DNA of 60,888 nt, counting the filler, from Stramenopiles sp. TOSAG23-3 (taxonomy: Eukaryota), in the NCBI GenBank assembly GCA_900128585.1. It is 15 parts of 15 records of this genome, joined end to end, with 100 filler letters (N's around TTAATTAATTAA, not from the genome) between each part and the next. Parts side by side here need not be neighbours in the genome. Positions count along the whole stretch, not along the records: positions 20,412 to 24,381 come from LT644006.1; 14 more parts are not named here. One strand, written 5' to 3'. A program made the translations under genes and the position numbers. The notes under the pieces were generated by a model. That model saw only the letters and a program-made list of their open reading frames with translations. It made no database searches and had not been told where the DNA came from. This document shows, in pieces, positions 256-56,941 of the stretch. Every line of letters starts with the position of its first letter. Position 1 is the first letter of the stretch.

Positions 256-3200
256 TTACAAATCGTCTTTGGCCGCTTTTTTCTTTGCTTTCTCTTCTTT
301 GCGCTTCTTCTTTCTCTTTTTCTTTGCTTCCTTTTTCGCCTTCTTCTTCTCGGCCTTTTCGTCTTCTTCTTTACGCGCCTTGCTCTTCTTTGCAGCTTCG
401 CGTTTCTTCTTTTTCTTCTTCTTCTTTTCTTCCTTGGCAGATTTTTCGTCTGCTGCGGGTGTCTCGGCGCCATCGGTCAGTTCGTACACTACCCAGCGCC
501 TCAAGTGCTCCTCTCCGGCGGCACGCGGCAGGTTTCCGCAGTTTGCATCGGCGCAACCGCACGAAAGCTTCAAGTCGTCGACGCACACTTTCTTGCAACC
601 TTCGTCGTCCATAGTGAATGTGGAAGATTTTGGCCTCTCGTCGAACACAAACGAGTGGCCGTCGGTGCCGGACCGGGCTACCGCAATGTACTTTTTGTTC
701 TTTTCTTGTGCAATGCTGTGAAGCAGTCGAATGTTTGCACCAGACGACGACCCGACGTACTCGCGGTCTTTGAAGCCATCCTCTCCACCTGCGCAGCCAA
801 GGTAGTTGACGGCCAAAGGCTTCAAAACGGGTTCAGGGTCCTCTTCCTCGTCGTCGTAACCATCTTTCGCGTCTTCCGCGTGCTTTTCTCCTGCCATGCG
901 CTTCATGTACTCCTCGTTGTACTTGTCCGCTTGTTTGTCTCGCTTTTTGTTAAAGTCTTCGAGCTGGCTGAAGTCTTTTCTGCTTGCAATCAGCTTGGTC
1001 AGGGCTGGGGGGTATTGACCACTGCAGTACCAGCTGCCTGGGGCATCGCACACGCGGTTCTTCGGGTCAGCGATCCATTTCTTTGATTTCTGGCTCACGT
1101 GCATGACTTTGAAGATGCGCACTTTCCCGTACTTCGTCGTCTTCACGTGCATGAACCGTTGGGGGTTCAGCTTGATGTCCTCTCTGTAGCCGTACTGCGT
1201 CATCTTGTACAACAGCGACTTCCTCATCATTGGGGTGGGGACGCCTCCTTGGTAGAACCCAAATTGGGAGCACGTAGGGTCCCCCGGGCAAATGTCGGAG
1301 TACACAGAGTTTCCGATACGGGCCATGTGCGGGGACTTGGCCAAATCGTCGCCACCTCCGCCTGCCCACACAAGGACGTAGTCTGCTAAATGGCGAATGA
1401 TCCGGTGGGACTTCTTTTCCGGCCCACTCAGCATGCGGCCCAAAGTCGCAATGTGCTCGTGGTTCCAGGTGTTCCCGTCTGCCAAAGACGTGCGGTTTCC
1501 GATGCCAGTGATTTGGTACCCGTAATCCCACCATGCCAGAACCCTGGCGTCTTCGGGGGTCTGGTCGCGAAGCCACCAGTAAGCTTCACGGTAGTCGTCC
1601 ACGATGATCTCTTTCCCGCTGTTCAGCCGCGCTTTGAACATGATCGATGGACCACTCATGCCCTCGGCCATCTGGTGGCAGTACTTGTAGAAATCTTGCG
1701 CTTTTGGGTAGTACGTCACGATCGCCCACGCCCCAAGGCCGATGCGCGCAAGCAGCAGAAGCTTTGAATCGTACACGGACTTGAAGCTTTTCAAGCCCTT
1801 TGCTGCCATGTCCTGCACGCTGGCCTCCTTTTCCTCGTCTGCCTTGTCGTCTGATTCCTCTTTCGTTTTCGGGCAAACCATCGAGTGCACCATGTTAATC
1901 AGCGGGTTCACGATGCACTGGTCCAGCACGAACCCGATCGCGGCGCCGCCAAGGGCGGACGAGACGGGGCCGAGGAGAATGATCAACCGGCTCATCTTCG
2001 AACTGAAGTAATACGCAATTACGGCGTAGGCCATCATGAAAAAGTTTGCATCCGACAAGCGCAGCAGCGAGACCGCTAATCCGTACGGGGCAATGTCGAA
2101 CATGATGTTCAAGTAGTGGCCGTACGCGGCCGCCGACGCGGGCTGGTGCTCGGCAACGCTGTCTACGAGCGGGTTTCCCGTGCGGGTATGCTTGACGAAG
2201 AGACCACGAATGCGGGCAGTCAGCGGCCCGAAGTACCCCGTTGGCAAAAGCAGGGACACCAAGACTCCCGCAGCCACCACGAGCGGCAGGGTCACCTTCA
2301 CGCGCAACAGGAACACTTGGGGGATGCTTAACCCTTTTTTTCTGCGCTGAATCTCGCAGTATTCCAGAATTTGGAACGCCACGAAAACGGCAAGGCCGCT
2401 TAGCTGCTCCAAGGAACGCAGTGGCCCCCACCCAACGACAGGGACGTGGACCGCCCCAAACGTCCCGATGATGTAAAACAAGGAGTAGGCCCGGTGGAGC
2501 TTGCTCGAGTACCTTCCGATGCAGACCAAGATCACCGCGTGCGCCGCGATCAGGTTGATGACAAAGATGAAGCCCCCCCACGTGGCAACCATGAAGATGT
2601 ACGCGAACCCACACAAGGTTCCATACACCACCGAATCTCTGGTGTGCCGTCCGTCCTTTACTTTTGGGTCGCTCCGCAAGGACCGGCACCAAAAGAAGAA
2701 GGTCAGGACCATCGCGGTCATCGCAACGCTCTCGTTGTCGTACCCTCCGCCCACGGAGCGCATGATGTGCGCCGGGATTATCGACATGATGGTAGCCGCC
2801 ACCACGCCCGCGGAGTACGACCCCGTGCATTCACTGGCCAAGAAACCTAAAATGACGGATGCCGACACGCCGAACCAGACAGGGACGTAAACGCACACGT
2901 CGTTGAGGCTCATCCCACCGTTCTTTGGCGAGAAGTATTTTATTGCGTTCCATATCGTCACGGAGGCAATTTGCATACCAGGGTAAATGGTTGTGCCTAC
3001 CGGCCTCCCGAGCGGGTACCACACTTTGTAGTCAAACCAGTGGAAAAAAGCTTGCCAGCCATTATCCCTCAAATACCGAGTGGCACGCATGTTAAACCAT
3101 GGGTCAAACTCGTGAATGACACGGCCGTAGGTGTTGATCGCGTACAGCCGTATGTTGTAGGCCATCATCCCCGCAGGGATGAACGCCATCATCCATATAA

Positions 3201-3375
3201 TGTAACCAATAAAGCGCCCCCCGCCTTTCAGCGTTTCCACGGCCTTCTCTTGCTCCGAGAGCCCCGCCGGTTTTACGCTCTTTGTTTCGACAGCTTTCGG
3301 ATTTGTCTTCGATGTGCCTTCGGGTTTTCCCTCACCCTTCGGGGCCTTCGTCGGCTTCGGACTAGCAGCAGACAT
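256..3375 (-). CDS. STT3: Oligosaccharyltransferase catalytic subunit STT3 (kinetoplastid single-subunit-like signatures) with C-terminal WSC-like domain, Lys-rich tail and KDDL end
   Basis: 1039-aa ORF with IHEFDPWFN, GGYDNE, SVAEHQP and the diagnostic WWDYG (1519-1533), a DDLAKSPHM (DK-type) motif and many TM segments; ends KDDL-stop. Confidence 0.97.
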   Translation of the reverse strand: MSAASPKPTKAPKGEGKPEGTSKTNPKAVETKSVKPAGLSEQEKAVETLKGGGRFIGYIIWMMAFIPAGMMAYNIRLYAINTYGRVIHEFDPWFNMRATRYLRDNGWQAFFHWFDYKVWYPLGRPVGTTIYPGMQIASVTIWNAIKYFSPKNGGMSLNDVCVYVPVWFGVSASVILGFLASECTGSYSAGVVAATIMSIIPAHIMRSVGGGYDNESVAMTAMVLTFFFWCRSLRSDPKVKDGRHTRDSVVYGTLCGFAYIFMVATWGGFIFVINLIAAHAVILVCIGRYSSKLHRAYSLFYIIGTFGAVHVPVVGWGPLRSLEQLSGLAVFVAFQILEYCEIQRRKKGLSIPQVFLLRVKVTLPLVVAAGVLVSLLLPTGYFGPLTARIRGLFVKHTRTGNPLVDSVAEHQPASAAAYGHYLNIMFDIAPYGLAVSLLRLSDANFFMMAYAVIAYYFSSKMSRLIILLGPVSSALGGAAIGFVLDQCIVNPLINMVHSMVCPKTKEESDDKADEEKEASVQDMAAKGLKSFKSVYDSKLLLLARIGLGAWAIVTYYPKAQDFYKYCHQMAEGMSGPSIMFKARLNSGKEIIVDDYREAYWWLRDQTPEDARVLAWWDYGYQITGIGNRTSLADGNTWNHEHIATLGRMLSGPEKKSHRIIRHLADYVLVWAGGGGDDLAKSPHMARIGNSVYSDICPGDPTCSQFGFYQGGVPTPMMRKSLLYKMTQYGYREDIKLNPQRFMHVKTTKYGKVRIFKVMHVSQKSKKWIADPKNRVCDAPGSWYCSGQYPPALTKLIASRKDFSQLEDFNKKRDKQADKYNEEYMKRMAGEKHAEDAKDGYDDEEEDPEPVLKPLAVNYLGCAGGEDGFKDREYVGSSSGANIRLLHSIAQEKNKKYIAVARSGTDGHSFVFDERPKSSTFTMDDEGCKKVCVDDLKLSCGCADANCGNLPRAAGEEHLRRWVVYELTDGAETPAADEKSAKEEKKKKKKKKREAAKKSKARKEEDEKAEKKKAKKEAKKKRKKKRKEEKAKKKAAKDDL

Positions 3376-3913
3376 GGTCTTTGTCGTTTTTACTTAATTT
3401 CAAAAAAGAAAGCAATGAAACAACAAACTACAAACTATTAGAGAAAAAGGAAGAAATATGCTACCAAAGTTGAACATACCTGTTTCACTTCCTCTTCATT
3501 TATACTTCACCTGTTACTTTAAATTAAAATTGAAGCTCGCTATATCTAGTATAGTACCAAATAAAAAAATATCATTCATCATCATCGATCAACAACAAAA
3601 AGAAATAATAAAAAAAAAAAATTATTATTATTTTTCGCGCACAAACCCCGCCCGGGCAACAATAACATAATAAACTTACTTGTTCCTTTCAATTGTTTTA
3701 TTATTAAATGTATTTCGTTTGTTCCATTGATAGTAAAATACATTATTAAAAAAGATATGAAACGATTGGATCAATTGAATGCTGTGATGATATATTTTTT
3801 ATTACCTCGATCCTCCTTCATCCATCGTCTTCTCATTCTCATTTATTTTGTGTGGTCCCAAACCAACGTAATTTTAGATAGGTGCATTGATATTTATAAT
3901 ACATTATTGTACA

Positions 3914-3994
3914 AGAAAGAAAAACAGAAGAACGAAGAACGAAGAAAGAAAGAAGAAGAAAGAAAGAAGAACGAAGAAAGAAAGAAAGAAAGAA
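3914..3994. repeat. GAA/GAAA purine microsatellite at contig end
   Basis: Visible AAGAAAG/AAGAACG run ending at the spacer. Confidence 0.9.
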
Positions 3995-4094
3995 NNNNNN
4001 NNNNNNNNNNNNNNNNNNNNNNNNNNNNNNNNNNNNNNTTAATTAATTAANNNNNNNNNNNNNNNNNNNNNNNNNNNNNNNNNNNNNNNNNNNN
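3995..4094. other. Artificial contig-joining spacer (N44-TTAATTAATTAA-N44); first of 14
   Basis: Identical 100-bp spacers start at 3995, 8079, 12160, 16236, 20312, 24382, 28452, 32516, 36574, 40631, 44687, 48742, 52793 and 56842. TTAATTAATTAA gives stops in all six frames, and contig lengths decrease monotonically. Confidence 0.98.
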
Positions 4095-4097
4095 AAT

Positions 4098-4205
4098 TAA
4101 AAAATCAAGTTAAACCATCAAGATAGGATTAGGGTTGGAACTGAAATAGTAATTGATTTAAAATGAGAGTCTTTAAGCATATCATACTATATAATTTGCT
4201 TTTTT
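4098..4205. repeat. Fragment of a dispersed AT-rich repeat shared with other contigs
   Basis: 4098-4140 aligns with 51131-51173. The reverse complement of 4163-4205 aligns with 16161-16194 and 58054-58090. Confidence 0.6.
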
Positions 4206-4774
4206 CTTCATAATACATTGTTGGCAGTAATCAATTATCAGGACTTTGTTACGAAAATAAATAAAGAGTGTATGGTTTTTTGGCTGTAATTAATACTCGC
4301 GGCAAAAACGTATGAAAACCGAGTTACATTTGATGTACCACACTACTGAGTTGTTTACCATCAAGTGAAAATATTTTTACTTGTAATTTTGAGCAGGAAG
4401 AGCCCGCACCTGTCCCAATTTCAGGGTACATCAACCGCTCGCCAAGCCTCTCCGGCCTGCGCCGGCTTGCCCACATGCTCACTACCGACCTGAACAACCC
4501 TCCCCCGCCATCTCAACTCACAAATGACAATTCCTTGACTGATTTACAAGACAGAAAATGAGCACCTTCAAAACAATTACCCCGCTGCTAGAAAAACCAC
4601 ACAAGGTCTGACTCATCTATGAGTAAGATATCGGATGACGAAGTTGATTACGGGTCATTTAGCATCGTCGGAAGTCGGAAGTTCAAATATCCATTCGGGT
4701 TATCCACGAAGTACACGCCATTATTATTTAATTTTAATTTAGATAAACTGAATTGAGTTTTTTTTAGCACGCTG

Positions 4775-6022
4775 CTAGATCCCTTTGGGTGCAGTTTGCT
4801 CGATAATTTGACGGCCCGTCTTAATAGCATCGTGAAGTCTTACTAGCTTAATTTTTCGCCGTTGTCTTTCCAGCGCAGGGGCTCTTTCCTGAATAGTCTC
4901 CATTGGATCATTCGTTGACTTAATACTACCAAGGTCACATATTTGTTCACTAGCTACACTTTGCATATTTTCTCTCTCGCCGAGTGGGACAGTAGTAAGC
5001 CTATCATATTTCTCAATAGCTCGGCCGATTCTTGATGCAACATTCTGCTTAAACTTAGCCCTTGCAAGGTAGCTCTGGGTAATATTAAGGAACCCCTCCG
5101 CCCCAATTGTCGAAAATTTGTTTCTGCTTGAGATTTGTGAATCATTGCGTGAATCAAGATTATTCGATGTGAAAGTATTTCTGCGTCTTCGAAATGCTTC
5201 TTTGTTTTTCCAAACAATACCCTTCTCTATTGAACCAATACTGCAGTTTCTGTGCCTAGAGACTAATTCCTCGTCTCCCCACCACCGTAAATATTCATCA
5301 ATATCGATTTGTCCGTTTCCATCAATATCAATTTGTAGAATTGCTTCTTTTAATTCTGCGTCATCCAATATTACCCCCAGTTGATAGCTCAAATTTCGAA
5401 ACTCGGAAGCTGTCAAATAGCCTTTTCCACCTGAATCACACCTATTAAAATGTACTTTTACAGCATTAAACCTTTCTGTTACTGTCCCATTATTCATTGT
5501 TTTCTTTATTGCCATGAGCATTTCGTTCATTTTTGCTTCGGACGTTTCAATAACTGTAATTAAACTGTGTATCATTGCACGCGAACCACTACCTTTAGGG
5601 AACCATTGCAGCAGCAACTCGCATACGCCTTTCAAATTGTTGTTACCTTTGATTTTTAGAGCTTGCAAACATGCATTCAGTGGGAAATCCATAGTTGCTA
5701 ATCGCTGTGCCAAGCGAAATCTTTGAGATTCAATTTCTTTCGATAGGGCTTCTTCACGACGATTTGTGGTCAAGTGAATTTTAGGGCAGCGGCTGTGGTT
5801 CTTTTTCCTCTGCTGAAAGGATACCCCGTTGAAAGTATTTCTCCTCATATCACTAGAAATGACATATTTTGATTTTGGCATGTCGTTGACTTTAGGATCG
5901 GGTTCACCCCCATTTGTTTTCGTCAATATTGCATTGATTTGATCATGCCCCGACTTGATTTTTTCTAAAAAAAGTACAAAATCATCCAGCGTCCCGCTTT
6001 TCGTTTTCGTTGTTTTTGCCAT
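4775..6022 (-). CDS. UBA-like + paired EF-hand protein
   Basis: UBA-like segment LATMDFPLNACLQALKIKGNNNLKGVCELLL; EF loops DSGGKGYLTASE and DIDGNGQIDIDE; first ATG at 6022. Confidence 0.75.
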   Translation of the reverse strand: MAKTTKTKSGTLDDFVLFLEKIKSGHDQINAILTKTNGGEPDPKVNDMPKSKYVISSDMRRNTFNGVSFQQRKKNHSRCPKIHLTTNRREEALSKEIESQRFRLAQRLATMDFPLNACLQALKIKGNNNLKGVCELLLQWFPKGSGSRAMIHSLITVIETSEAKMNEMLMAIKKTMNNGTVTERFNAVKVHFNRCDSGGKGYLTASEFRNLSYQLGVILDDAELKEAILQIDIDGNGQIDIDEYLRWWGDEELVSRHRNCSIGSIEKGIVWKNKEAFRRRRNTFTSNNLDSRNDSQISSRNKFSTIGAEGFLNITQSYLARAKFKQNVASRIGRAIEKYDRLTTVPLGERENMQSVASEQICDLGSIKSTNDPMETIQERAPALERQRRKIKLVRLHDAIKTGRQIIEQTAPKGI

Positions 6023-6389
6023 TGCCACTTAGATTCAAAAATGTTTCAAGTATTTCACTGCTTACACAAAAGAAATCTAAACGTTCTTCAATATCACAAA
6101 CATGCGTTTGTTTCAGGAAGTATAATGCGTTCGCTGTTCTATTGAAATGCCGTGAGTAAGCTTTACTGGGTCATCCTACTGTTATATTACACGAAACAAT
6201 ATCTCGAGATAGCGTAGGGGGACACCAGGAAATTATGATTATTAGAATGAACTTTTGGTACTGATAACCCGTGGAGATTTTTCATTTTTAAGGCAGACGA
6301 TTGTTGTTCCAATTGTTTTCATTCTGTGTTTTAAGGAATATTATTATTTACAGTACCAAATTTTAAAAAGGAGCGAACAAATTGTACCT

Positions 6390-6513
6390 ATTAATGTATT
6401 CTAATAAGCAATTGAGAACAGAGACAGAAATCGAAAAGAGTGAAATTGCTATTAATTAATGTATTCTAATAAACAATTGAGAACAGAGACAGAAATCGAA
6501 AAGAGTGAAATTG
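6390..6513. repeat. Intergenic tandem duplication, period 65 bp
   Basis: ATTAATGTATTCTAATAA(G/A)CAATTGAGAACAGAGACAGAAATCGAAAAGAGTGAAATTG at 6390-6448 and 6455-6513. Confidence 0.92.
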
Positions 6514-7420
6514 TACTTAATATTCATTGTATCAATCTACAGGAAATGTCATACAGAGTTGATAAATACCGTAATATAACAGAATTAACAGGAGTTCGAA
6601 GTTTAGATTGAAACGTATTGTACTTATTTCATTAAAGTTAATTCCCATAAGTGCAATAAGAAGAACGAACCGCAAGGACAATAGAGTAAAATTTAATTCC
6701 GCCTGTCAAGTACGCGTGTTGTTTTCTTCTTCTTTTTTCTCCCCTCTGTTTTTTTTGTCCTGTAAATGTGATTGTTCTGAATTAATGTTTTGCCGGAACC
6801 CTGTGAAACAGTAAACTTCGTTCTCTTTCAAAATTGCAATACCTTAATATATAAATACCATTTATCTACTAAAATACTTATTTTTATACACTATTCCTTA
6901 CACTATTTTGTGATGAATCCCTTCCATATTTTATTTTATGACCGTTATAAACAGTTCAGAGCAAGACGACTATCGAGCATCAATCCCATCGAAGAAACCT
7001 TACCTCATATATTTGGTTTGTTTCGAAATAACTCGTATAGTGTTAATCTGAAAGTTTTAGTAAAATATACTTTAAATCTAAATAAGTATTTATTTAGTCA
7101 GGCTACAGTAAGTAATTGAAATTGAAATACATATAAATCACAGATTTTCAAAAAAAACCCTGAAAAGTAAGACGGTCGCATATGTCCACTAATTTTTTTC
7201 CAATGAGATGCTAATTCCATATGCAATGTCACCTGCTGTGTCGTTCAATCGTTAACTAAAAATATACAAGAACACATCATTGTATTTCTTCGCACTTTAT
7301 GGTATTTTCCAAATATTTAGGGTTAAAATAGGGTTACAATATTCAACTTTTGTCCTTAAGAGTGTGAGCTATATTACAATTTTGTCTGTATTGTCTTCAT
7401 TGTTTGTGTAAAAAGCATCA

Positions 7421-7750: not shown

Positions 7751-8180
7751 ATGTATCATCTTAAATTACATAATAATTATAAAAAATAAATTAAAATCCC
7801 CGTCATTTACAACATTCTGTGATTTAAAAAAATAAAACTTATTCAGCTAAGTAAATATTTCAATTTGATATGTTAAACCATTCTATTATTTCAAAGTAAT
7901 ATAAAAAAGAAAAAACTAATCCAGTTATCTAAATTATAGTAAATGTTTCTATTTGATAATTGATATTTAGAAGTGAAAAAGGTAAGCTGCTATTCAGATA
8001 AAATATTATCTTCAGTTATAAAAGACTTTCCATTCGATGTTGTTTGTTTTTGTCCATTGAATTTTTACTTCTTCGTGTNNNNNNNNNNNNNNNNNNNNNN
8101 NNNNNNNNNNNNNNNNNNNNNNTTAATTAATTAANNNNNNNNNNNNNNNNNNNNNNNNNNNNNNNNNNNNNNNNNNNNGT

Positions 8181-20843: not shown

Positions 20844-22304
20844 ATGTTGAACAAATTCCTGCTCGTGGGCGTTTGCCTTTGCGCAGCATTGTGCTACGGA
20901 AGTGCCAGTGGCACGAAGACGGTGTTCTTTCCAGAGGAAGGCTACGACCTGTCGATGTATGAACCTTTAAACAAAGTGATAATGACTTCGTTTGGCGGAA
21001 AACTCCAAGACTCAGAAATATGCTTTGCGCATGGGAAGAAAGGCTTCGTTGACGGCATGGCAGCGTACAGAAGCAACCCTGAGCGGTGCACGGCCGGCCT
21101 AGTATTGCTAGGTGCAGCCCCGGGCAAAAGCCAAGACCTCCAGGGACTCGAAGCACCGCTTCTTGTTCTTGCTGGTGATCTGGATGGGATATTGCGCTTT
21201 TCGTCGTTTGCGGCAGCCAAGCACAAGTTCGGTTCGACAAAGAGACGCTTCGCAATAATCCAAGGAGCTTCCCACCACAGTTTTGCGTCTGGCGACAAAC
21301 CACTTGCCCTGGACCTTCGGCCTGACATCGGGCACTCGAAAGCACACAGCACGATTGCTGCTGTCGTTAACGACTTTGTCTTTTCCAGCGACAAAGGGGA
21401 CACCATGTTGAAAAAAACAGAAGCGTTGGCAGACAAGCTTGCCGCGCCAATCGTAGCCGCTTTGAAGTTGGAAGGCTCTGGGGCGCTTGGCACCGACGTT
21501 TGCAATTCAGATTTTCCTACCAACCCAACCTGCAACTACCCGAAGTACCCAGACTTCGCCTTGCCCCCTGGACCAGCCCCAGCCCCATCCCCAATGCCCT
21601 CAAGTGACTGCATTTGTGGCTCCAAGTGGGTTACCGATTACGCGTTCCCAACTGTTAGTGGCGCTGCCGACCTTGGATTTTCCCTTCACGCCGCCGACGC
21701 CTTTCACAGTGTTTCCGACGTTCACCCGTTTCACTTGCCTCACATTTGGAACTCATGCCCATCGCCAAGTGGGTGCGATTTGAACGTCACCACTCTGACG
21801 GAAAACTTGCCAGGCTCTGGGAGTTTGTTTCCGAACGGCACAGGCGCCCCACTAAGCGCGTACGAGTTGCGGACAAAGATGAAATCTCGCACGACTTTGT
21901 ACAAAGCCGTTGGAGTGAAACCTGGGCCAAATGTTGACAAAAATCTTACCCTTTGCCGTCAGGCCAACGAAGAGGCGTGGGCGTGGGCCACCAAAAATGC
22001 AGACCCAAGTGTCATGAAGCGATTCGACGCCGACGGGGAGCCATTTGTTATGGTGGATGACAAAGAGGCACCAATTGGGTTGAAAGGTCCAGAATGGATA
22101 GAAAAAACACTAGTTTACAACCGAGTAAAATCTAGCTCAGGCCGAACTCAAATCGAAGTCCAATCGTGGACCTTTGTGGTCGGAGATTTTCCCATTCACT
22201 CCAAATACCTTCCGACTGGGATGCATTATTGCAAGCTTTTGTCGCCGGCTCGTGCAATGGAATGGTTGTACACGGATTCGTTGCGTCAAATGCGCTCTGT
22301 TTAA
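20844..22304 (+). CDS. Secreted alpha/beta-hydrolase-fold-like protein
   Basis: Signal peptide MLNKFLLVGVCLCAALCYG; AGLVLLGA, PLLVLAGDLDG and IIQGASHHSF match the acid/His strands of alpha/beta hydrolases; the nucleophile motif is degenerate. Confidence 0.65.
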   Translation: MLNKFLLVGVCLCAALCYGSASGTKTVFFPEEGYDLSMYEPLNKVIMTSFGGKLQDSEICFAHGKKGFVDGMAAYRSNPERCTAGLVLLGAAPGKSQDLQGLEAPLLVLAGDLDGILRFSSFAAAKHKFGSTKRRFAIIQGASHHSFASGDKPLALDLRPDIGHSKAHSTIAAVVNDFVFSSDKGDTMLKKTEALADKLAAPIVAALKLEGSGALGTDVCNSDFPTNPTCNYPKYPDFALPPGPAPAPSPMPSSDCICGSKWVTDYAFPTVSGAADLGFSLHAADAFHSVSDVHPFHLPHIWNSCPSPSGCDLNVTTLTENLPGSGSLFPNGTGAPLSAYELRTKMKSRTTLYKAVGVKPGPNVDKNLTLCRQANEEAWAWATKNADPSVMKRFDADGEPFVMVDDKEAPIGLKGPEWIEKTLVYNRVKSSSGRTQIEVQSWTFVVGDFPIHSKYLPTGMHYCKLLSPARAMEWLYTDSLRQMRSV

Positions 22305-22414
22305 GAGTTGAGAAAACGTAAAAGAAACTTAATTGTTTTAAATTAAAACTTGGTACCTTTAACAAAACTGACACATTTTTATTGTACCTGCTGTATCTGT
22401 AATTCTAACTCTTT

Positions 22415-24380
22415 TCAGTAAATGCTCCCCGGTATTTTGGGGTTTCCTAGATCCGTAACATCCAGGCCGACATTGCAACGGCCAGGGCACTGAACCTCTT
22501 TAGGAACAGGTTTTAACATCGTTATATTGTAGACCCAGTCCGACAGGTAAAAAGTGCCCTGTTCCCCTGACCCCACCATCTTTCCCCGTTGGTTCCAATA
22601 CCTGTTCATCAATATTACACAATGGTTATCGCCTTCTGAAACAAACTGGTAATAATTTGGAACAGAACTTAAGTTTCCAGGAGCGTATACCTTCTTCATG
22701 TCGGAATTCCACTTCAACTTTTCGGCCAGCCGAGCGCTTCCGCCTACGGTCATCGCCTTCAAGAAAAAGGCTTGGTTCCAGTCGTAGGCGGACGAAAATT
22801 GAGAAACGACATGCTTCGGGTTTGCTTGGCCTATCCAACGGTAAAGTGTGGGCAGAGATAACGAGGAAAAAATTCCAGATCGGATTTCGGTCATCTGAAA
22901 TGCAGACAGGTTGCCGCCAGCAGCCGCATTACTTGGTATCACATTGAAAGGAAACTGCCCCGAAACGTTCCACAGCGCGGTTAAGCCCAAGTTTCCGGTA
23001 ATTACGCCCATTCCAGAGTCCCCGAACTGGACCACCTTCGTACTTTTGTTCTTGTAATGGTTCATTAGATGGGATGCCCACATCAGTGAGCCGTAAGACC
23101 CTGCCGAGCACCCAGTAACAAAAACCAACTCTGGGTCTGCGGGAAGGGCTGAATAAATCCAATCCATGACAACTCTGGCGTTTCTACCACCCGTGTGGAA
23201 TATTTTCAAACTCTCTGTATACTGAACTTCGTTGTCACCCCAATGAAGGTCACCCGTACAATATGGCACAAAAATGTGAGTGTAGTTAGAAAACGGCGAG
23301 TCCACGTCCCCTATTCCACGATAAGGGTATACGAAATCGCTGGCACCTGGATCTCCCTTCTTTGGCACAGTTTTCGGAAGGTCGCGAAACATTCTCCTGG
23401 CATTTTCTGCAGTCTCGCTGAAAATTGCCGTTTGAAGACCACAGGTCCGCTTACTCCAACAGGCACCCCCTCCCATAAACTCAATAAGCAACTTTTTTGA
23501 CCCTGTTTGCCCACGCTTAACAAAGAACACGAAAGGCGTTCCACGAGCGCATTTTGTATTGCCCACAGGCCGCAGTTCGGTCCATTCGTTGACCTTTAAA
23601 TCATTTAAAGATTGCGGCATGAAGTACGATTCGTCCGTCTCAAGGACAAGCTCCTCTTTTGAACTCGTTCTACTGACTTCTGCAGCGTACGAAACGGCAA
23701 CAATAATCACCGTAATGGCCCAACACGCCCCCATGCCCGCATAGGTTCGTTTCAAATCAGCTAGAGGAACCACGGCTGGGTCTTCTTTTGAAGCAGGCTC
23801 AGTCTTTTCTTCGCCGCCACTGCGCGCTGTGCCTTCGTTGGTTTTCTTAAGACACTTGCAAATCTTTTTCATGTCCTGGTAATCTTCCCTTTCCACGGGG
23901 CCAAAGCCGGACAGAAATGCCATAAAGACGACTGTGCCGGAGAGGTAGGCCCACACAACGGCCATAGCCATAAAGATACCAAACTGAAGAAAAAATACAA
24001 AGGTTGCTGCAAACAGGAAGCACGACGATCCCAAGGTAGAGAATGCTGCTGCGCTAACAGAAACGCCCATGGCAGAGAGAGCGTCAATTACGCGTTCACC
24101 GGATGTTCGTTTTTGCGAATGTACGTATGCAACAGCCAGATGCACAGTGTAATCCACAGAAAACCCAACAAGAAAAGTTACGCACGTTGAGCGGACGCTG
24201 CCAAGCTTTCCTCCCTCGATGACAATGCCGCCCAGAACACCAACCACGATTAACGCAATCGACAACAGCGAAAATAGCGATATTCGTGCACTTTTTGTAA
24301 AAAAAAAGACTATCGCGAATGCAAACAACGCACTTATCAGAACAGACCCCACTGCACTCGTGACAAAAAGAACTTGCTCC
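22415..24380 (-). CDS. Patched/Dispatched-family (RND) C-terminal TM region fused to a pectin acetylesterase/Notum-family hydrolase (5'-truncated)
   Basis: RND motif LVGFSVDYTVHLA with flanking helices (ALSAMGVSV, FFLQFGIFM); one extra TM; then CARGTP, IEFMGGGACW, VPYCTGDLHWG, TGCSAG, YDWNQ and NHC in a single open frame. Confidence 0.85.
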
Positions 24381-24685
24381 GNNNNNNNNNNNNNNNNNNN
24401 NNNNNNNNNNNNNNNNNNNNNNNNNTTAATTAATTAANNNNNNNNNNNNNNNNNNNNNNNNNNNNNNNNNNNNNNNNNNNNTTGTTTGTTATATAGATGA
24501 AACATTTTAAATGTATTATATACATAACCGATCAATATAAATATATATATATTGTTGTAATGTGATGTTGGTAGAGGCCAATGGAAAAACGGGAGGAAAA
24601 CATTTACATTTGTTTGATGTGATGGTAGCATTGTTTTAAAAACTTGAGTGTTTATTGTATCGAATAGAGGGGATTTAAATAAATC

Positions 24686-26012
24686 ATGGGAGCGATTTGC
24701 TGCGGGCAGTTTAAAGCCGCAGGTCCCGCGAGGGCGGAGTATATCCAAGCGCAAACCAAGTACGGCAGCCAAACGTCGCAGATGATCGTTGCTACGGACG
24801 ACCGAATTCAATTTGTGGGACGGAGCGTCGTAAATGGGACGGACCGGGAATACAGCTACGCGTCCGGTGTCATCCGATTCCTTGTCAAAGGCCCCGCGAG
24901 CTCCATATCGATTTTGTGTGGCACACCGAAGAACGGGACCCGTGGTAAAAAGATGAGGGGCTTAGGAGGAAAGAATAAAGGTGGGGTCCCGCTTAAACCT
25001 GGCAGCATGATGAACGTATACCACAACGGTGTGCATGTTGATAAAATTGGTGTTGACATTGGGGAAGACCCTCATCGAAGTGTCCAGGTGCTCCGAAGGT
25101 TTCTCGGGGTTGCTCATCTTTAAAGGGATATTTTTGCCAGAGACATGCGAGCTTCTTCAGCCGCCGCCAAAGAGGAAGCTCATCGAGTTCGTAGGGGACT
25201 CCGACACCACTGCGCAAGTTGGACTAGGACCGTTTACCCTGAACGTCAGTGCGATTTTTGCAAACTACGTAACGTGGGGGGACGCCGATTACGGGTGGGC
25301 CCACTATGTCGCCCGCGCGTTTGGGTGTGACTACATAAATTCTAGCACGGGCGGGATAGGAATTTGTTATCAAGGCGACAAATTCGGAAAAAGAAATAAA
25401 GCAGGCCCGGCCCATGAGCATTACGACGATAAGATAAACTTCAACTGGGGCGTGGAAGAGAAAGACGAGAAATTCTCTGTCGGGGAGATGGGTCCTGTGG
25501 ACCTCGTCGTTGTCTGGCTTGGTCAAAACGATGTGGTCGCCGGGCACGGTCCAGGAAAGGTTGCCGAGGGAATCGTTGGGTATGAAAAATTGCTCTCTGC
25601 TATTCGCAAACATCGAGTAGAGACCCCAATTTTGTGCCTCTACCCAACCGGGATAATTCATACCAACCATCCCAAAAATCCGCTGTTTGGTGGCAACAAA
25701 AAGAAATGTCTTGCCGTCAACAGCGACATAAAAGCCTACATCAATGGTGCCATCGAGAAATGGGGCGGAGATGAAAAGGAACTCAATATCTTTGCTCGAG
25801 GTTTCGAAATGAGCCCAGCGTTTGATCCAGCAACGGACTACGGTGCGTTTGGAGAGCTTGGCGTTGGTGGGGCCAGAAAACTCGCCCGCGGCACCTTGCC
25901 ACTTGTCAAAGAAATAACTGGCTGGGAGATTGTCAGCGAAGTCCCCGAAAAGGGTCGGCATGGAGCGTTGCCGGAGACGACAACAGCCCAGTATGTCACG
26001 GAAACAAAATAA
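24686..26012 (+). pseudogene. CE2-like SGNH/GDSL esterase split over two overlapping frames (24686..25123 and 25029..26012)
   Basis: N-part IQFVGR..SGVIRF..NVYHNG resembles the CE2 N-terminal beta domain; C-part has LIEFVGDS and WLGQND. A +1 shift near 25040-25070 is required. Could be a real lesion or an assembly error. Confidence 0.6.
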
Positions 26013-28727: not shown

Positions 28728-29009
28728 TCGTCGGAGATCTCGGATTATTATTTTTATTATTATTTTTTAGTAGTAGTATTACGACAGAAGAAGAAAGAAA
28801 AGGAGGAAGAAATAAATAAAGAAGAGATTTTTTTATTCAACAAGTTAAATTGATTGTTTCATTTATTATGAGAGACTGAAGGTGTTTGTTGTGATAGGGT
28901 TTATTAAAGATGTAAAAGAAAACATGAATCGTTTGGCACAGGAAACTGGTTTTCCATGCAGTTAAGTTTCTGCACAAAAGTATAAATAAACCTCCTAGGT
29001 TTGCCAAGC

Positions 29010-32000
29010 ATGGTTTGGATCACCTTACTTCTTCTCTCCAGCCTGCTTTGCAGTTTTGGATTCGCGCAGGATGATGACCCTCACTTGCCTAGTCGAATTG
29101 CCTTGAACGGGTTGACGCGGCAAAAAGATCTCGTTGCGTCTCCCTTTTTGTACTTGTCGCCGATTGTGGTTTCTTGGGTTCCAGGGGATACCAAAGGAGA
29201 ACATGCAAGCAATGCTTTAACATCACCCATACAAGTCACAGTATCAGAGGAGTGCCCATACTGTGTGGAGCACACACTTGTTTGGAGTTTCTCTGGGGAA
29301 TTCAAAAGGTCTCCGTCTTTCCAGATTCCAAAACGAATATTGAAAAAAATGATGCCAAAACGTTCCTATGCCATGCAATTGCGCCACAACAACGACACCT
29401 CGTGGTCACAACCACTCGTGTTTGACATTGCCCCTGAAATATCCGACTGGGATAAAGCTGAGTGGGTCGGAGGTGCATCGCAGTTGAGGTCGGAGATCCT
29501 TTTGGCAAAGGGAAAAGAAGTCGGAAAGGCGAGGGCCTACGCCAGTGGATTAGGTGCCTTTCAGCTGCATGTGAACGGGGGAATTGTTGGTGACCACATT
29601 ATGGACCCTGGTGAATCAGTGTATGACCAAAAAGTTCTTTATGTGGGGTTTGACGTGACTCCTCTACTGCAGCCGGGAAAGCTGAACGTTTTTGGTGCGG
29701 TGGTTGGGAATTCAAAATTTGGATATTTGGATATATATGCAAACAGGAGCAAAGTTCACGACCAATCGGGGGACTCCACGCGAGCTTTCATCATGCTTTG
29801 CGTTGTTACATACAAAGATGGTTCCGAAGAAATGTTCACGACCACAAGCGATTCCTCCAGCCCTCAGTCGACTTGGATGGCCAGGCACGGCCCAATAGTC
29901 TACGACCACCTTTGGCACGGCGAGATTTTCGATCATCGTTTGACAATCGAAGGGTGGGATGCAGGATCGTTACAACGTGGAGACGAGTGGGCGGCGGCGA
30001 AGAAAATGGTGCCTGTTGTGGGAGAACTGGTGCCGCAGCAAATGCCCCCGATTAGAATTACAGAGACTCTACTGCCGGTTCACTCTAGATGCAGCAATGA
30101 TGCTTGTGTGTTTGATTTTGGCCTGAACTTCGCTGGACTGACAGCGCTCACGTTCAGCATCCCTTCCTCTAAGATTAGCGCAACAATCATGCTCCGCTTG
30201 AAACACACAGAAATATTGGGGGAGAACGGGGAGCCTTTCAACAATTACTACCCTGGGATGGAGCACAACGGGGCAAGCAAAACATGTTCAATGAGCGATT
30301 GGTACGAGGGACTTTGGTACGAATGCGCAAACCAGACGGACGCCATCATCATCTCAACGCTGAATTCCACTTCTGCCCAGGAATTAGTGATGTATTCACC
30401 CACGTTCACGTACCACGGCTTTCGATTTGTGGAGTTGACCGCTGTAGAGATAGGGGCAGATGGTAAGGAAATGGCGTTGTCGCTCGAATTGGAAAACGCG
30501 TTTCCGTTTGGTGCCGAGCTGGTTGCGCACCGTGCCCATAGCGACATTGAAAAGAGGACCACGATTGACTTTACGCAGCCAGAATCTTCGCCTGGACGTA
30601 CCCAGGAAACTGCGTCACTCTTGGAAAAACTTTTTAACGCAACCATTAACTCGCACACAAGCAACCTGTGGTCCATCCCTACAGATTGCCCACAGCGGGA
30701 AAAGCGAGGATGGATGGCAGACGCTGGAATTTCATCGCTGTCGTTGCAAGAATTTTTTGATAGCTTTGCTTTTCATGCCAATTTTCTCCGACGAATAGTT
30801 GACAACCAGAGGAAAGGTTGCACCGATCAGCCAACAACCAACAACGGCCACCCGTGCCAACACCAAGGCGCAGAGCCAGCGGCGCAATGGTTCAATGGAA
30901 GCGTTCCTGATGTAGTCCCATTTCCAACATCACCTTATGGAGGGAATCCTGGGACAGTAGATTGGCAAGCAGCATTTATTATGATCGGAGGAAATATGCT
31001 GAAAAGCTATGGGAAAGAGAGGACCTCTCCTTTGCTAAACGAACTTTGGCCCCACTATGTATCGTTGATGGATTATTACGAACGAAATGTGGACAAAGGC
31101 ACTGGTTTGCTCTTGCAAGGAGCCCGGGGAGATTGGGTTCCACCTGTAAACACCGCAAAACCAACCGGGGCAGAACCCACAGCGGCTTTTTTTCACACCC
31201 TTTGCGTTCAGTATATGTCAGAAATTGCAACAGCAATCGGCCGTAGTGCCGATGCAGCACGATACTCAAAACGATTAACGACCAACAGGAAAGCTTACCA
31301 TTCTAAGTTCTACAACAAAACGGGCAAATCCTGTTGCTATGGCTCCGGCAGCCAAACCAACAACATCTATGCTTTGTACATACATGCCGTGCCCACAAAA
31401 TCAATTGAAGACGAAACCGTTCAAGCGCTGGTCTCTGCTATTCATTTTCACAACAAGAGTGTGGATGACTCAAGGGTTGTCGAACGAAGTGTTAGTGACG
31501 AATCGGCAGTTGCCCCTGTGCCTCCCTGGGGAGATGGGCCACATTTAGACATGGGAATTTTTGGGACTACTTTTGTATTTGATGTCTTGAAGGCGCATGG
31601 CCTTGATGACCTTGGTTTTCAAATTCTCAACAGAACGGATTACCCGTCCCTGGGCTATATGATTGCGCAAGGGTCTACAACGCTTTGGGAAGGATGGACT
31701 GGAACAAGGAATTTAATTGGCGAGGCAACAAGTCGCAACCATATTATGTTTGGCGGGGGAGTCATCAGGTTTTTAGCTACCCAGCTTGTTGGTTTGCCTT
31801 CCAATGCACACGACGATGGAGTGTTGACCATTTCTCCTGCAAAGTGGGCAATTGAAAACCTGTACCAAATGTCCGGCACCCGTGACATGGGCCGCGGCAG
31901 GGTTGGCGTGGCATGGGCTCGTGCAAAGAACCAGCCCCACACGTTAGAACTCAACGTTTCCCTCCCATCGTTGTCAGCCGCGCATGTCCGACTTCCTGCC

Positions 32001-32180
32001 TCCCACCAATGCGAGAATATTTTTGTACAGCAAGTCTCCGACAGGCAAGGCACTGTTCTACCATTGCCCAAGGTAGACTGTCAAATTGAAAGAAGCCCAA
32101 CTGTAACATACGCCATCCTTCAGATTCCAATCTTCAACCAACGCACACATTGGGTCATTCATACTTCTCTAAATAATTAA
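29010..32180 (+). CDS. Secreted alpha-L-rhamnosidase (GH78)
   Basis: Signal peptide; VFDFGLNFAG, PTFTYHGFRFVE, IPTDCPQREKRGWMAD, TTLWEGW and SRNHIMFG motifs. Confidence 0.93.
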   Translation: MVWITLLLLSSLLCSFGFAQDDDPHLPSRIALNGLTRQKDLVASPFLYLSPIVVSWVPGDTKGEHASNALTSPIQVTVSEECPYCVEHTLVWSFSGEFKRSPSFQIPKRILKKMMPKRSYAMQLRHNNDTSWSQPLVFDIAPEISDWDKAEWVGGASQLRSEILLAKGKEVGKARAYASGLGAFQLHVNGGIVGDHIMDPGESVYDQKVLYVGFDVTPLLQPGKLNVFGAVVGNSKFGYLDIYANRSKVHDQSGDSTRAFIMLCVVTYKDGSEEMFTTTSDSSSPQSTWMARHGPIVYDHLWHGEIFDHRLTIEGWDAGSLQRGDEWAAAKKMVPVVGELVPQQMPPIRITETLLPVHSRCSNDACVFDFGLNFAGLTALTFSIPSSKISATIMLRLKHTEILGENGEPFNNYYPGMEHNGASKTCSMSDWYEGLWYECANQTDAIIISTLNSTSAQELVMYSPTFTYHGFRFVELTAVEIGADGKEMALSLELENAFPFGAELVAHRAHSDIEKRTTIDFTQPESSPGRTQETASLLEKLFNATINSHTSNLWSIPTDCPQREKRGWMADAGISSLSLQEFFDSFAFHANFLRRIVDNQRKGCTDQPTTNNGHPCQHQGAEPAAQWFNGSVPDVVPFPTSPYGGNPGTVDWQAAFIMIGGNMLKSYGKERTSPLLNELWPHYVSLMDYYERNVDKGTGLLLQGARGDWVPPVNTAKPTGAEPTAAFFHTLCVQYMSEIATAIGRSADAARYSKRLTTNRKAYHSKFYNKTGKSCCYGSGSQTNNIYALYIHAVPTKSIEDETVQALVSAIHFHNKSVDDSRVVERSVSDESAVAPVPPWGDGPHLDMGIFGTTFVFDVLKAHGLDDLGFQILNRTDYPSLGYMIAQGSTTLWEGWTGTRNLIGEATSRNHIMFGGGVIRFLATQLVGLPSNAHDDGVLTISPAKWAIENLYQMSGTRDMGRGRVGVAWARAKNQPHTLELNVSLPSLSAAHVRLPASHQCENIFVQQVSDRQGTVLPLPKVDCQIERSPTVTYAILQIPIFNQRTHWVIHTSLNN

Positions 32181-32515: not shown

Positions 32516-32901
32516 NNNNNNNNNNNNNNNNNNNNNNNNNNNNNNNNNNNNNNNNNNNNTTAATTAATTAANNNNNNNNNNNNNNNNNNNNNNNNNNNNN
32601 NNNNNNNNNNNNNNNAAAATAAAAAAACTTAGATAGAAGAATACTTTCTTCTTCTACTACGGTACTTGGTAGACTATTAATAATGATGATTAATTTTATT
32701 ATTTTATAATACAATAATAATACCTTGGTATTATTATTACAAAAAAAAAAAAAAGTTGCTGGCGGCGGCGGGCGGCTGCTGCATTTAAAAAAACATATTT
32801 TGTCATATATAAATACATAGTCCTATATATGACAAGAACGATTATTTTGAAAAAGTGGTAGAATAAGGAAAGGAATTCGTCAATCAGCTTATTTTATTGA
32901 A

Positions 32902-34269
32902 ATGAGGGACAACGAAAGAATGACGACGGGTGGGTTCATCGCAACGGTGTATTTGTTGTTTGGCCTTTTCTGCCTTGTGGTGCAGACGGCTTGTAGCGTA
33001 GACAATGGGGTCGGTCTGACACCTCCGATGGGTTGGCGGTCCTGGAACTGTTTTGGCGCGGACGTTTCGCAAGAAAAAATGACCAACATAATGGATGCCA
33101 TGGCTGATAAGTCGAGGGTCGATGTGGTTACTGGGAATGGAAGCATCAGCTTGCTGGACGTCGGGTACAACAACTGCGGCCTCGACGACAACTGGCAAGC
33201 GTGCGGCGCAGGTCCGCAGGACTCTTTCAACGACGAAAACGGCGCCCCGCTGATCAACACGACAACGTTTCCAGACATGAAGGCGATGACGGACCATGGC
33301 CATAGCCTCGGTCTACGCGTTGGCTGGTACATGAACAATTGCATCTGCAGAGAGAACAAGCTGAAAGGCGACGACTTTGTCGAGAAAGTGTGGGCTGGGT
33401 CTGCGAACGCTGTCGCTTCCTATGGTTTCGATGGTGTAAAGCTTGATGGGTGCGGGCAATTTTTAAACCTGACGAAGTGGGCAATTTTGCTGAACCAAAC
33501 AGGGCGCCCGATTCTCATTGAGAACTGCCACTGGGGGTTCACGTCCCCTGACAACGGGGCCAAGGAGGTGGAAACAGGAGCGGACGGTATCGTATTTCCA
33601 TCACAAAGCAACGGCCCGTGCGACGGCACAAAGTCACCATCCGACTGCCCGTACAATTTTTACCGGACCAGTGTAGACATTCAAGGGAACTGGAACTCCA
33701 TGATAAGCAACTTGCAGTCCGTGGTCAAGTACGTCAACCACGACCCGCCATTGTCGCGCCCAGGGGCGTGGGCCTACCCGGACATGCTGGAAGTCGGAAA
33801 CTGGCACGCAACGTTTACCGAGGACCGGGCCCATTTTGGTGCATGGTGCATTTCCTCCAGCCCCCTTGTCCTTGGGTTTGACTTGACGAACAAGACAACA
33901 ATGGATAGGGTGTGGAGTATTGTTGCGAACCGCGAGCTTATTGCAGTGAACCAGGCATGGCACGGGTCCCCTGGGATCTTGGTAAAAAAGGCTTCCAAGT
34001 CGAGCCTCTTTGGGCGCCCAATCTACCAAGTGTGGTCAAAGCCCGTCGGCAGCTCCATGGTCGCCGTGTACTTGCTGAACAACGACGCTCCTGGCAACGA
34101 GCGGGACATTACCTTCAAACTTGCCGATGTCGGCGTCCCTGCCAGTGCAACCGACGTATCGATTCGGTGCCTGTACGAACACAAAGACCTGGGCAAAGTC
34201 TCTGGGAGCACTTTCACTGCAAAAGGCATCCAAGGACACGATAGTCGGTTCTTTCGTTTGTCCTGGTAA
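32902..34269 (+). CDS. Secreted alpha-galactosidase (GH27)
   Basis: DNGVGLTPPMGWRSWN, LDDNW, GVKLDGC (nucleophile region), RTSVDI and PDMLEVGN; hydrophobic N-terminus. Confidence 0.95.
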   Translation: MRDNERMTTGGFIATVYLLFGLFCLVVQTACSVDNGVGLTPPMGWRSWNCFGADVSQEKMTNIMDAMADKSRVDVVTGNGSISLLDVGYNNCGLDDNWQACGAGPQDSFNDENGAPLINTTTFPDMKAMTDHGHSLGLRVGWYMNNCICRENKLKGDDFVEKVWAGSANAVASYGFDGVKLDGCGQFLNLTKWAILLNQTGRPILIENCHWGFTSPDNGAKEVETGADGIVFPSQSNGPCDGTKSPSDCPYNFYRTSVDIQGNWNSMISNLQSVVKYVNHDPPLSRPGAWAYPDMLEVGNWHATFTEDRAHFGAWCISSSPLVLGFDLTNKTTMDRVWSIVANRELIAVNQAWHGSPGILVKKASKSSLFGRPIYQVWSKPVGSSMVAVYLLNNDAPGNERDITFKLADVGVPASATDVSIRCLYEHKDLGKVSGSTFTAKGIQGHDSRFFRLSW

Positions 34270-56841: not shown

Positions 56842-56941
56842 NNNNNNNNNNNNNNNNNNNNNNNNNNNNNNNNNNNNNNNNNNNNTTAATTAATTAANNN
56901 NNNNNNNNNNNNNNNNNNNNNNNNNNNNNNNNNNNNNNNNN

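Follow-up and report, generated by a model that had tools for sequence, protein, structure and literature searches.

A Dispatched-like transporter fused to a predicted Notum/pectin-acetylesterase-type esterase in Stramenopiles sp. TOSAG23-3 and other protists

A gene fragment from Stramenopiles sp. TOSAG23-3 (assembly GCA_900128585.1) joins the end of a Patched/Dispatched-type transporter of the resistance-nodulation-division (RND) superfamily to a predicted serine esterase with the fold of Notum and the pectin acetylesterases (PAEs). It lies in a 60,888-base stretch of DNA, here called the window, which consists of 15 pieces of about 4 kb in falling length order with 14 artificial joints of the form N44-TTAATTAATTAA-N44 between them (e.g., 3995–4094, 8079–8178, and 56842–56941). 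The linkers introduce stops in all six frames, and any feature that spans a joint is artificial. The fragment, P0001, sits on a contig of ~4 kb (LT644006.1; 20412–24381), and its full-length counterpart is a public protein of 1430 residues, P0003. The fusion is a real, transcribed, single contiguous gene sequence and not a chimeric contig. That the transporter and its tethered esterase share one lipidic ester as their substrate, on the outer or lumenal side of the membrane, is a proposal to which an even chance is assigned.

On the minus strand, the coding frame of P0001 (654 residues) begins at 24379, with the final complete codon ahead of the joint, and stays open as far as the stop codon at 22415–22417. 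It is open at its 5′ end because the contig ends at 24381; thus, the earlier note's description of one uninterrupted frame stands for the linker and the junction, while the openness at the 5′ end reflects only the end of the contig. The transporter portion within the window is limited to transmembrane helices (TM) 8–12, and the rest of the gene was not found by tblastn elsewhere in the 60,888 bases. All five motifs (GFSVDYTVH, GGGACW, GCSAG, YDWNQ, and DNHC) fall exactly where they had first been placed. The features are as follows.

22415..24379, minus strand: C-terminal 654 codons and stop codon of the fusion gene (P0001), with the 5′ end cut by the contig end
23918..24355, minus strand: second RND transmembrane bundle, TM8–TM12, P0001 residues ~9–154, from the hydropathy of P0003 and the DISP1 alignment
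24140..24166, minus strand: TM10 motif GFSVDYTVH, residues 72–80, whose intramembrane Asp aligns with DISP1 D1049
23738..23917, minus strand: charged linker of ~60 residues with poor conservation, joining TM12 to TM13, mostly “x” in the consensus of alignment A2
23681..23737, minus strand: extra 13th TM helix, residues 215–233, hydropathy 1.84
22460..23590, minus strand: Notum/PAE-type alpha/beta-hydrolase core, P0001 residues ~264–640, from AlphaFold2, Foldseek, and the Pfam PAE match
23456..23473, minus strand: oxyanion-hole loop GGGACW, residues 303–308, aligned with the Notum loop Gly126-Gly127-Trp128
23105..23107, minus strand: codon of the predicted nucleophile Ser425, within GCSAG (residues 423–427, 23099–23113), aligned with Notum GSSAG
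22781..22783, minus strand: codon of the predicted catalytic Asp533, within YDWNQ (residues 532–536, 22772–22786)
22622..22624, minus strand: codon of the predicted catalytic His586, within DNHC (residues 584–587, 22619–22630)
22387..22414, minus strand: short 3′ untranslated stretch, with RNA contigs of three studies ending at 22387, 22390, and 22403
24382..24481, no strand: artificial joint N44-TTAATTAATTAA-N44, non-biological

Residues 777–1430 of P0003 are identical to P0001 at 653 of 654 positions, the one difference being Pro521 versus Thr. The 90% cluster of P0003 has five other members, three of which are 1417–1430 residues long and lie on separate contigs (up to 78.7 kb) from two sources. 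A search among longer proteins, in which 8000 candidates were scored, returned 10 proteins at E ≤ 0.001, and hmmscan finds a sterol-sensing/Patched part together with a PAE part in all 10. DNA of the gene was found in 20 public runs from 12 studies, all marine or seawater; six of these runs are on record as RNA, two of the six being polyA-selected. Four of the 20 runs were compared along the contig by way of assembled contigs, which show continuity and not expression level or transcript ends. In RNA library X3, a contig of 2727 nt spans 22387–24381 and extends past the contig end; in RNA library X14, which belongs to another study, one of 522 nt spans 23442–23963 including the linker and TM13; and the polyA library X18 has pieces on either side of the junction. 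No joints or loose ends are reported across the junction in the four compared runs. The possibility of a chimeric contig, for which the earlier note had proposed a read or RNA check over 23590–23900, falls away, as contigs of two RNA studies bridge this interval and DNA contigs from other studies also cross the junction.

The idea that assembly or gene calling joined two neighboring genes is scarcely credible. It can point to the short contigs from which the window is built and to the entry from Hondaea fermentalgiana (2357 residues), in which RNA ligase and kinase domains follow the esterase in what looks like a merged gene model. However, P0001 is a single open frame without a stop through the junction, full-length proteins of the same cluster (1417–1430 residues) come from four further contigs and two sources, contigs of two RNA studies run across the junction interval, and the order of the parts is identical in 18 of 18 relatives. 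A reading of TM13 as the cleaved, signal-like segment of a separate gene was also considered and rejected, no stop, joint, or loose end being present there in the RNA contigs.

A DNA contig (X2) continues through 22387–22403, where the RNA contigs of three studies stop, which is a weak hint that these ends mark the end of the transcript. The fusion reading frame shows no differences from the environmental contigs compared. Elsewhere on the contig, small differences occur at 22328, 22384, 22393, 21453, and 20748, comprising an intergenic TT insertion and a few single-base changes, and they point to a closely related population across studies.

The architecture of the transporter is seen in P0003. 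In its hydropathy profile, TM1 (21–39) is followed by an extracellular domain of ~235 residues, TM2–6 (~280–440), a cytosolic loop, TM7 (536–554), a second extracellular domain of ~225 residues, TM8–12 (~785–930), the linker, TM13 (990–1008), and the esterase; these assignments come from a crude hydropathy scan and not from a topology predictor. The sterol-sensing domain (SSD) proper corresponds to TM2–6 and lies outside the window. P0001 alone reaches 18 bits with the sterol-sensing Pfam model, below the cut-off of 22.3, and has weak HAE3 and Patched matches in NCBIfam. P0003 scores 55.1 bits with Sterol-sensing PF12349 against the same cut-off and 39.4 bits with Patched PF02460 against a cut-off of 23, and its PAE match likewise exceeds the Pfam cut-off. 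Among solved chains, the first 160 residues of P0001 match DISP1 (E 1.8e-13, over residues 15–162), Patched (3.8e-5), and NPC1 (4e-3), and phmmer with P0003 returns DISP1 (E 9.6e-34), Drosophila Dispatched (3.3e-17), Patched (1e-9), and NPC1 (6e-9). A Dispatched/Patched-type identity is thus supported, with Dispatched clearly the best match by E-value ranking and not by a tree. The earlier note had assigned the helices to a Patched/Dispatched-type RND protein, and this assignment holds, DISP1 being the best match and PF02460 exceeding its cut-off in P0003. Animal Patched/SSD proteins form the nearest clusters in the ESM Atlas, at 0.84 where the lead level is 0.9, and no fusion cluster is shown.

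The alignment of P0003 with DISP1 spans TM2–6, the second extracellular domain, and TM8–12. Within it, the P0003 sequence GIGADDVFIL (GIGADD at 343) pairs with GIGADDAFVL of DISP1, and GFSVDYTVH (GFSVD at 848) pairs with GLSVDFAVH. Of 19 fusion proteins, 18 match a regular expression for the TM10 motif and 17 match one for the TM4 motif. DISP1 is a Na+-driven RND protein that releases lipid-modified Hedgehog. It resembles P0003 in its 12 TM helices, its two extracellular domains, and the shared TM4 and TM10 aspartates but lacks a 13th helix and an enzyme domain, and its identity to P0003 is low. The organisms with the fusion are protists, which are not known to have a Hedgehog pathway. In DISP1, residues D571, D572, and D1049 are described as coordinating three Na+ ions, and Hedgehog release is lost when all three residues are replaced together (bioRxiv 10.1101/2020.09.05.284026). 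As the Asp-Asp pair of TM4 and the Asp of TM10 are kept as in DISP1, the fusion protein is proposed to be a cation-driven, Dispatched-like transporter.

The esterase part of P0001 passes the Pfam model PF03283 (E 1.4e-17; 64.3 bits with a cut-off of 26.6) over residues 275–457, and on its own it gives a weak match to Notum among solved structures (0.025). A search of 1.84 billion representatives returned 5419 matches at E ≤ 0.001, 124 of them at E ≤ 1e-30. The best 150 are mostly free-standing proteins of 340–450 residues aligned over residues ~257–600. An alignment of 89 of these homologs with the P0001 domain (A1) conserves GGGACW, PYCTGDxHWG, GCSAG, an invariant Asp in GDSG, DxxQ, and HC. 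Used as a profile, A1 matches Notum (E 1.8e-17), and the match aligns both the Gly-Gly loop and GxSAG. Across 132 full-domain homologs, the Ser is kept in 130, the Asp in 131, and the His in 130, with all three in 128, and each of the two oxyanion glycines is kept in 131. The three residues are also present in every one of 18 fusion-length rows, which represent 15 distinct proteins and three near-copies of P0003.

The AlphaFold2 model built on A1 has a mean predicted local distance difference test score (pLDDT) of 86 and a predicted template-modeling score (pTM) of 0.88. The Ser follows the strand at 185–191, the Asp that at 291–297, and the His that at 343–348, in keeping with the canonical layout of alpha/beta hydrolases. 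A Foldseek search of the PDB gives Notum for every one of its top 50 matches (E ~1e-14, template-modeling scores 0.5–0.65, identity 15–18%). In an all-against-representatives fold search, Notum is found with Z scores of 30.7 (313 residues, root-mean-square deviation 3.2 Å) and 29.3, and the next hydrolase with 13.6. The oxyanion hole of Notum is described as consisting of backbone amides from Gly126-Gly127-Trp128 and Ser232-Ala233, and the triad is Ser232/Asp340/His389 (PMC8172013). On the basis of the model and the alignments, the C-terminal ~420 residues of P0003 are predicted to be a complete PAE/Notum-fold serine esterase with an intact oxyanion loop and a Ser-Asp-His triad. The earlier note's complete domain with an oxyanion loop, a nucleophile, and candidate Asp and His is borne out by the alignments and the residue counts, and its structural check ended in a predicted domain that folds like Notum, with the three residues behind the expected strands.

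Notum, an extracellular carboxylesterase that strips palmitoleate from Wnt, is the closest solved fold and shares the oxyanion loop, GxSAG, and, by prediction, a Ser-Asp-His triad. In contrast to the fusion esterase, it is free and secreted, and the two are only 15–18% identical. The fusion esterase is much closer to free-standing bacterial “PAE-family hydrolases”, to which it is 33–43% identical over the whole domain. The plant pectin acetylesterases (PF03283, which we take to correspond to CAZy family CE13) belong to the same Pfam family, whose cut-off the domain exceeds, and the motifs GCSAG, YDxxQ, and HC are typical of them. However, the match covers the first half of the Pfam model only, and the domain is here membrane-tethered to a transporter. 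To our knowledge, no pectin is known in the organisms from which the fusions come.

The link between the two parts is a charged linker, which would be cytosolic, and the extra helix, which the earlier note had placed at about 23680–23745 and which is indeed present at 23681–23737. A hydrophobic 19-mer lies between TM12 and the esterase in all 18 C-terminal fusions (Kyte–Doolittle 1.84–3.11). Lys and Arg around TM13 are commoner upstream in 15 of these 18, with three ties and no reversal. Both termini of DISP1 are cytosolic, and a 13th helix added to this 12-TM, termini-inside topology would therefore bring the esterase to the side of the extracellular domains. DISP1 is described as a 12-TM protein (PMC8453165). 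The esterase part carries six N-glycosylation sequons and eight Cys, four of which are invariant in the family, and among the 88 free-standing homologs with an initial Met, 81 have a hydrophobic N-terminus of the kind found in secreted proteins. The prediction thus puts the esterase next to the two extracellular domains, on the extracytoplasmic or lumenal side. The earlier note had argued that the extra helix would put the esterase outside; the predicted topology agrees, and in the separate fusion P0056 the esterase lies in extracellular loop 2, on the same side.

The RND and PAE parts are paired, according to Pfam, in 21 cluster representatives at 31–83% identity. These are P0003–P0012 and 11 of 20 further scanned proteins: P0013 (a fragment), P0014, P0015, P0016, P0018, P0022, P0026, P0056, P0061, P0069, and P0093. 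The PAE match of P0069 (24.5 bits) is slightly below the cut-off, and the other nine scanned proteins have a PAE domain without an RND part. Public entries carry automatic names. The fusion of Durusdinium trenchii, a coral-symbiont dinoflagellate, is labeled “Protein dispatched homolog 1”, that of the thraustochytrid Hondaea fermentalgiana (GBG25719.1; P0015) “Pectin acetylesterase 3”, and the JGI records “predicted RND superfamily exporter protein”; one cluster has a Tara surface-water member. In the P0015 entry, the 2H phosphoesterase, RNA ligase, and AAA_33 kinase domains that follow the RND-PAE part are the parts of a tRNA ligase, and the entry is probably a merged gene model.

A FastTree phylogeny of 126 esterase domains, rooted at the midpoint and computed without the window fragment and the other members of its 90% cluster, places 14 of 15 fusion proteins in one clade (support 97; supports are local Shimodaira–Hasegawa-like values and not bootstraps). 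Two fragments fall within this clade too, as do two short proteins encoded on contigs of 1.2–1.6 kb, the latter probably being fragments as well. The remaining fusion, P0056 (2456 residues), falls in another well-supported group of the tree, which suggests two fusion origins, one of which then spread widely. In P0056, the esterase (1026–1375) is situated between TM7 (694–712) and TM8 (~2309), within extracellular loop 2, and this loop also has a weak fn3 match. One clade holding 14 of 15 fusions, a second origin in P0056, and 21 representatives at 31–83% identity suggest selection for the pairing.

It is proposed that the cation-driven, Dispatched-like transporter would move a hydrophobic molecule between the outer leaflet and the extracellular domains and that, at the membrane surface, the tethered Notum-type esterase would hydrolyze this molecule's acyl or steryl ester. 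DISP1, PTCH1, and NPC1 all move hydrophobic molecules between these two locations. The cycle could run in either of two directions. In one, the esterase may release a sterol or fatty acid from external material, after which the transporter would insert the product into the membrane. This corresponds to the earlier note's freeing of sterol or fatty acid from prey esters, although the phagolysosomal setting that the note suggested is unsupported. In the other, an ester held in the membrane may be raised by the transporter to the esterase and released there. The domain identities, the retained ion-site and catalytic residues, transcription as a contiguous whole, and the conserved pairing are shown, whereas we infer the topology, the coupling, a lipid substrate, and the direction. 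A more specific and rather improbable form of the mechanism is one of extraction and cutting, in which the Dispatched-like part would pull a sterol-esterified or O-acylated protein, or a glycolipid, by its lipid anchor out of the outer leaflet and the esterase would cut the ester, freeing a soluble head group. If so, one protist protein would join activities that animals use separately for Hedgehog release and Wnt deacylation, which would hint at an older, non-developmental role for Dispatched and Notum.

Known proteins offer partial parallels. In NPC1 and in the AT3-SGNH O-acetyltransferases (OafA/OatA), an extra helix or linker puts an added domain on the extracytoplasmic side. The added domain of NPC1 is a sterol-binding N-terminal domain and is non-enzymatic, and the AT3-SGNH proteins are not RND proteins, yet an AT3-PAE fusion (P0141) occurs among the relatives of the esterase. 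A precedent for a hydrolase on the periplasmic side of an RND transporter is QsdH of Pseudoalteromonas byunsanensis, in which a GDSL lactonase is described as occupying a periplasmic loop of an efflux pump; the authors propose that it acts on the ligand class of the pump (PMC3466314). QsdH differs in its GDSL/SGNH fold, its multidrug-efflux type of RND transporter, the location of the enzyme in the first periplasmic loop at the N-terminal end, and its bacterial origin.

Several observations weigh against a coupled lipid esterase and transporter. The evidence for coupling is the fusion itself. The PAE match spans only profile positions 22–187 of 355, the catalytic Asp and His are placed by conservation and their position after strands and not by residue-level superposition, and the Lys/Arg count flanking TM13 in P0001 itself is a tie (two versus two). 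Four fusions (P0026, P0061, P0069, and P0093) have GTDTG, GTGAG, GTGSG, or GTQYG in place of GCSAG; in these four, the Asp and His are still present, and a long insert contains many Cys and sequons. The domain in this lineage is probably not a serine esterase, judging from the sequences, and hydrolysis is therefore not required in every lineage. The other partners of the esterase family (an AT3 acyltransferase in P0141, a C39-like peptidase and YdjC in P0092, and an M1 aminopeptidase in P0105) suggest glycan or peptide substrates rather than lipids. Free-standing bacterial homologs, finally, are not linked to RND genes. The nearest of them include a Myxococcota “pectin acetylesterase-family hydrolase”, and a prokaryote genome scan seeded with this protein (P0024), a seed that biases the taxa, gave 80 loci, whose titles on an uncounted reading are mostly Myxococcota/Polyangia, Bradymonadia, and Oligoflexales. 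An RND gene was found in one of the 80 loci (2812 open reading frames). The neighborhood profile, built from 13 fusion RND parts, detects AcrB weakly (E 8e-5), and the count of one may therefore be too low. In that locus (L066, from a Polyangiaceae metagenome-assembled genome), an AcrB-type gene (1727–6070) lies directly upstream of a PAE-family hydrolase gene (6001–7206); this is an anecdote and not support.

Two functional alternatives draw on these observations. The esterase could be a carbohydrate O-acetylesterase of the plant PAE kind that acts on wall, scale, mucilage, or prey polysaccharide, with the transporter exporting an amphiphilic or lipid-linked polymer precursor or serving merely as an anchor. 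The passed Pfam pectinacetylesterase model, relatives fused to an acyltransferase or to a YdjC-like sugar deacetylase, and the presence in the window, though on other contigs, of a secreted-type rhamnosidase and an alpha-galactosidase speak for this function. It is nevertheless judged unlikely. The sole solved relatives are the Notum lipid deacylases, although no plant PAE is among the solved chains; the characterized relatives of the transporter (DISP1, PTCH1, and NPC1) all handle sterols or lipid adducts, as is established; and an anchor needs one helix, not a conserved 12-TM transporter that retains its ion-site Asp.

The esterase-fold domain could instead be mainly a binding or gating module for the cargo of the transporter, with hydrolysis secondary or absent. 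The four proteins without the nucleophile Ser would fit such a module, as they keep the N-terminal half of the fold together with the Asp and His and have gained the large insert. For the family as a whole, this role is improbable: P0001 and 14 other distinct fusions keep the GGG loop, GCSAG, Asp, and His at 31–83% identity, the pattern expected under purifying selection on catalysis.

Further features of the window concern the organism more than the fusion. Convergent to the fusion gene lies a plus-strand gene (20844–22304; 486 residues) with a hydrophobic N-terminus and a weak, sub-threshold Abhydrolase_5 match (E 6e-4). It has its own RNA contig (20806–22310) and, in run X3, a higher word depth than the fusion gene. 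Other pieces carry uninterrupted open reading frames of more than 1000 codons, and the organism is therefore intron-poor. Pfam matches there include STT3, EF-hand, IQ, Fringe-like, and polycystin channel domains, all of eukaryotic kinds. The closest named relatives of the STT3 protein are oomycetes (Aphanomyces, 50–51% identity) and a pelagophyte (56% over part of the length), with other marine sequences considerably nearer, which is a weak sign of a marine stramenopile. A GDSL-type lipase (25014–26009, plus strand), a GH78-type alpha-L-rhamnosidase of bacterial kind (28986–32177, plus strand), and an alpha-galactosidase (32851–34266, plus strand) lie on separate contigs and suggest an organism that digests external or ingested polymers. 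A low-complexity repeat at the start of a contig (28552–28770) reads as (KKER)n or (SFFL)n in several frames.

What is new is the way in which two well-known families are combined, and the proteins are public. No paper on a fusion of an RND transporter with a PAE/Notum domain was found in full-text literature searches, whose scope did not extend to supplementary tables or InterPro, and a dinoflagellate paper (PMC12014239) lists “Pae” among retrogenes. The earlier note's remark that it knew of no characterized architecture of this kind accordingly stands as regards the literature searched, but the architecture is widespread in sequence data, with 21 representatives and with the gene itself in 12 studies.

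The cargo of Dispatched-, Patched-, and NPC1-like transporters beyond animals and fungi is largely unknown. A transporter that is permanently tied to a predicted ester-hydrolyzing enzyme therefore offers an experimental handle on cargo. A large branch of the Notum/PAE family in bacteria and protists, as yet unstudied, is documented here as well, with several fusion partners and one lineage without the catalytic Ser. As the gene is transcribed and occurs in 12 studies and has relatives in a coral-symbiont dinoflagellate and a thraustochytrid, the fusion may matter for lipid or sterol traffic in abundant marine protists.

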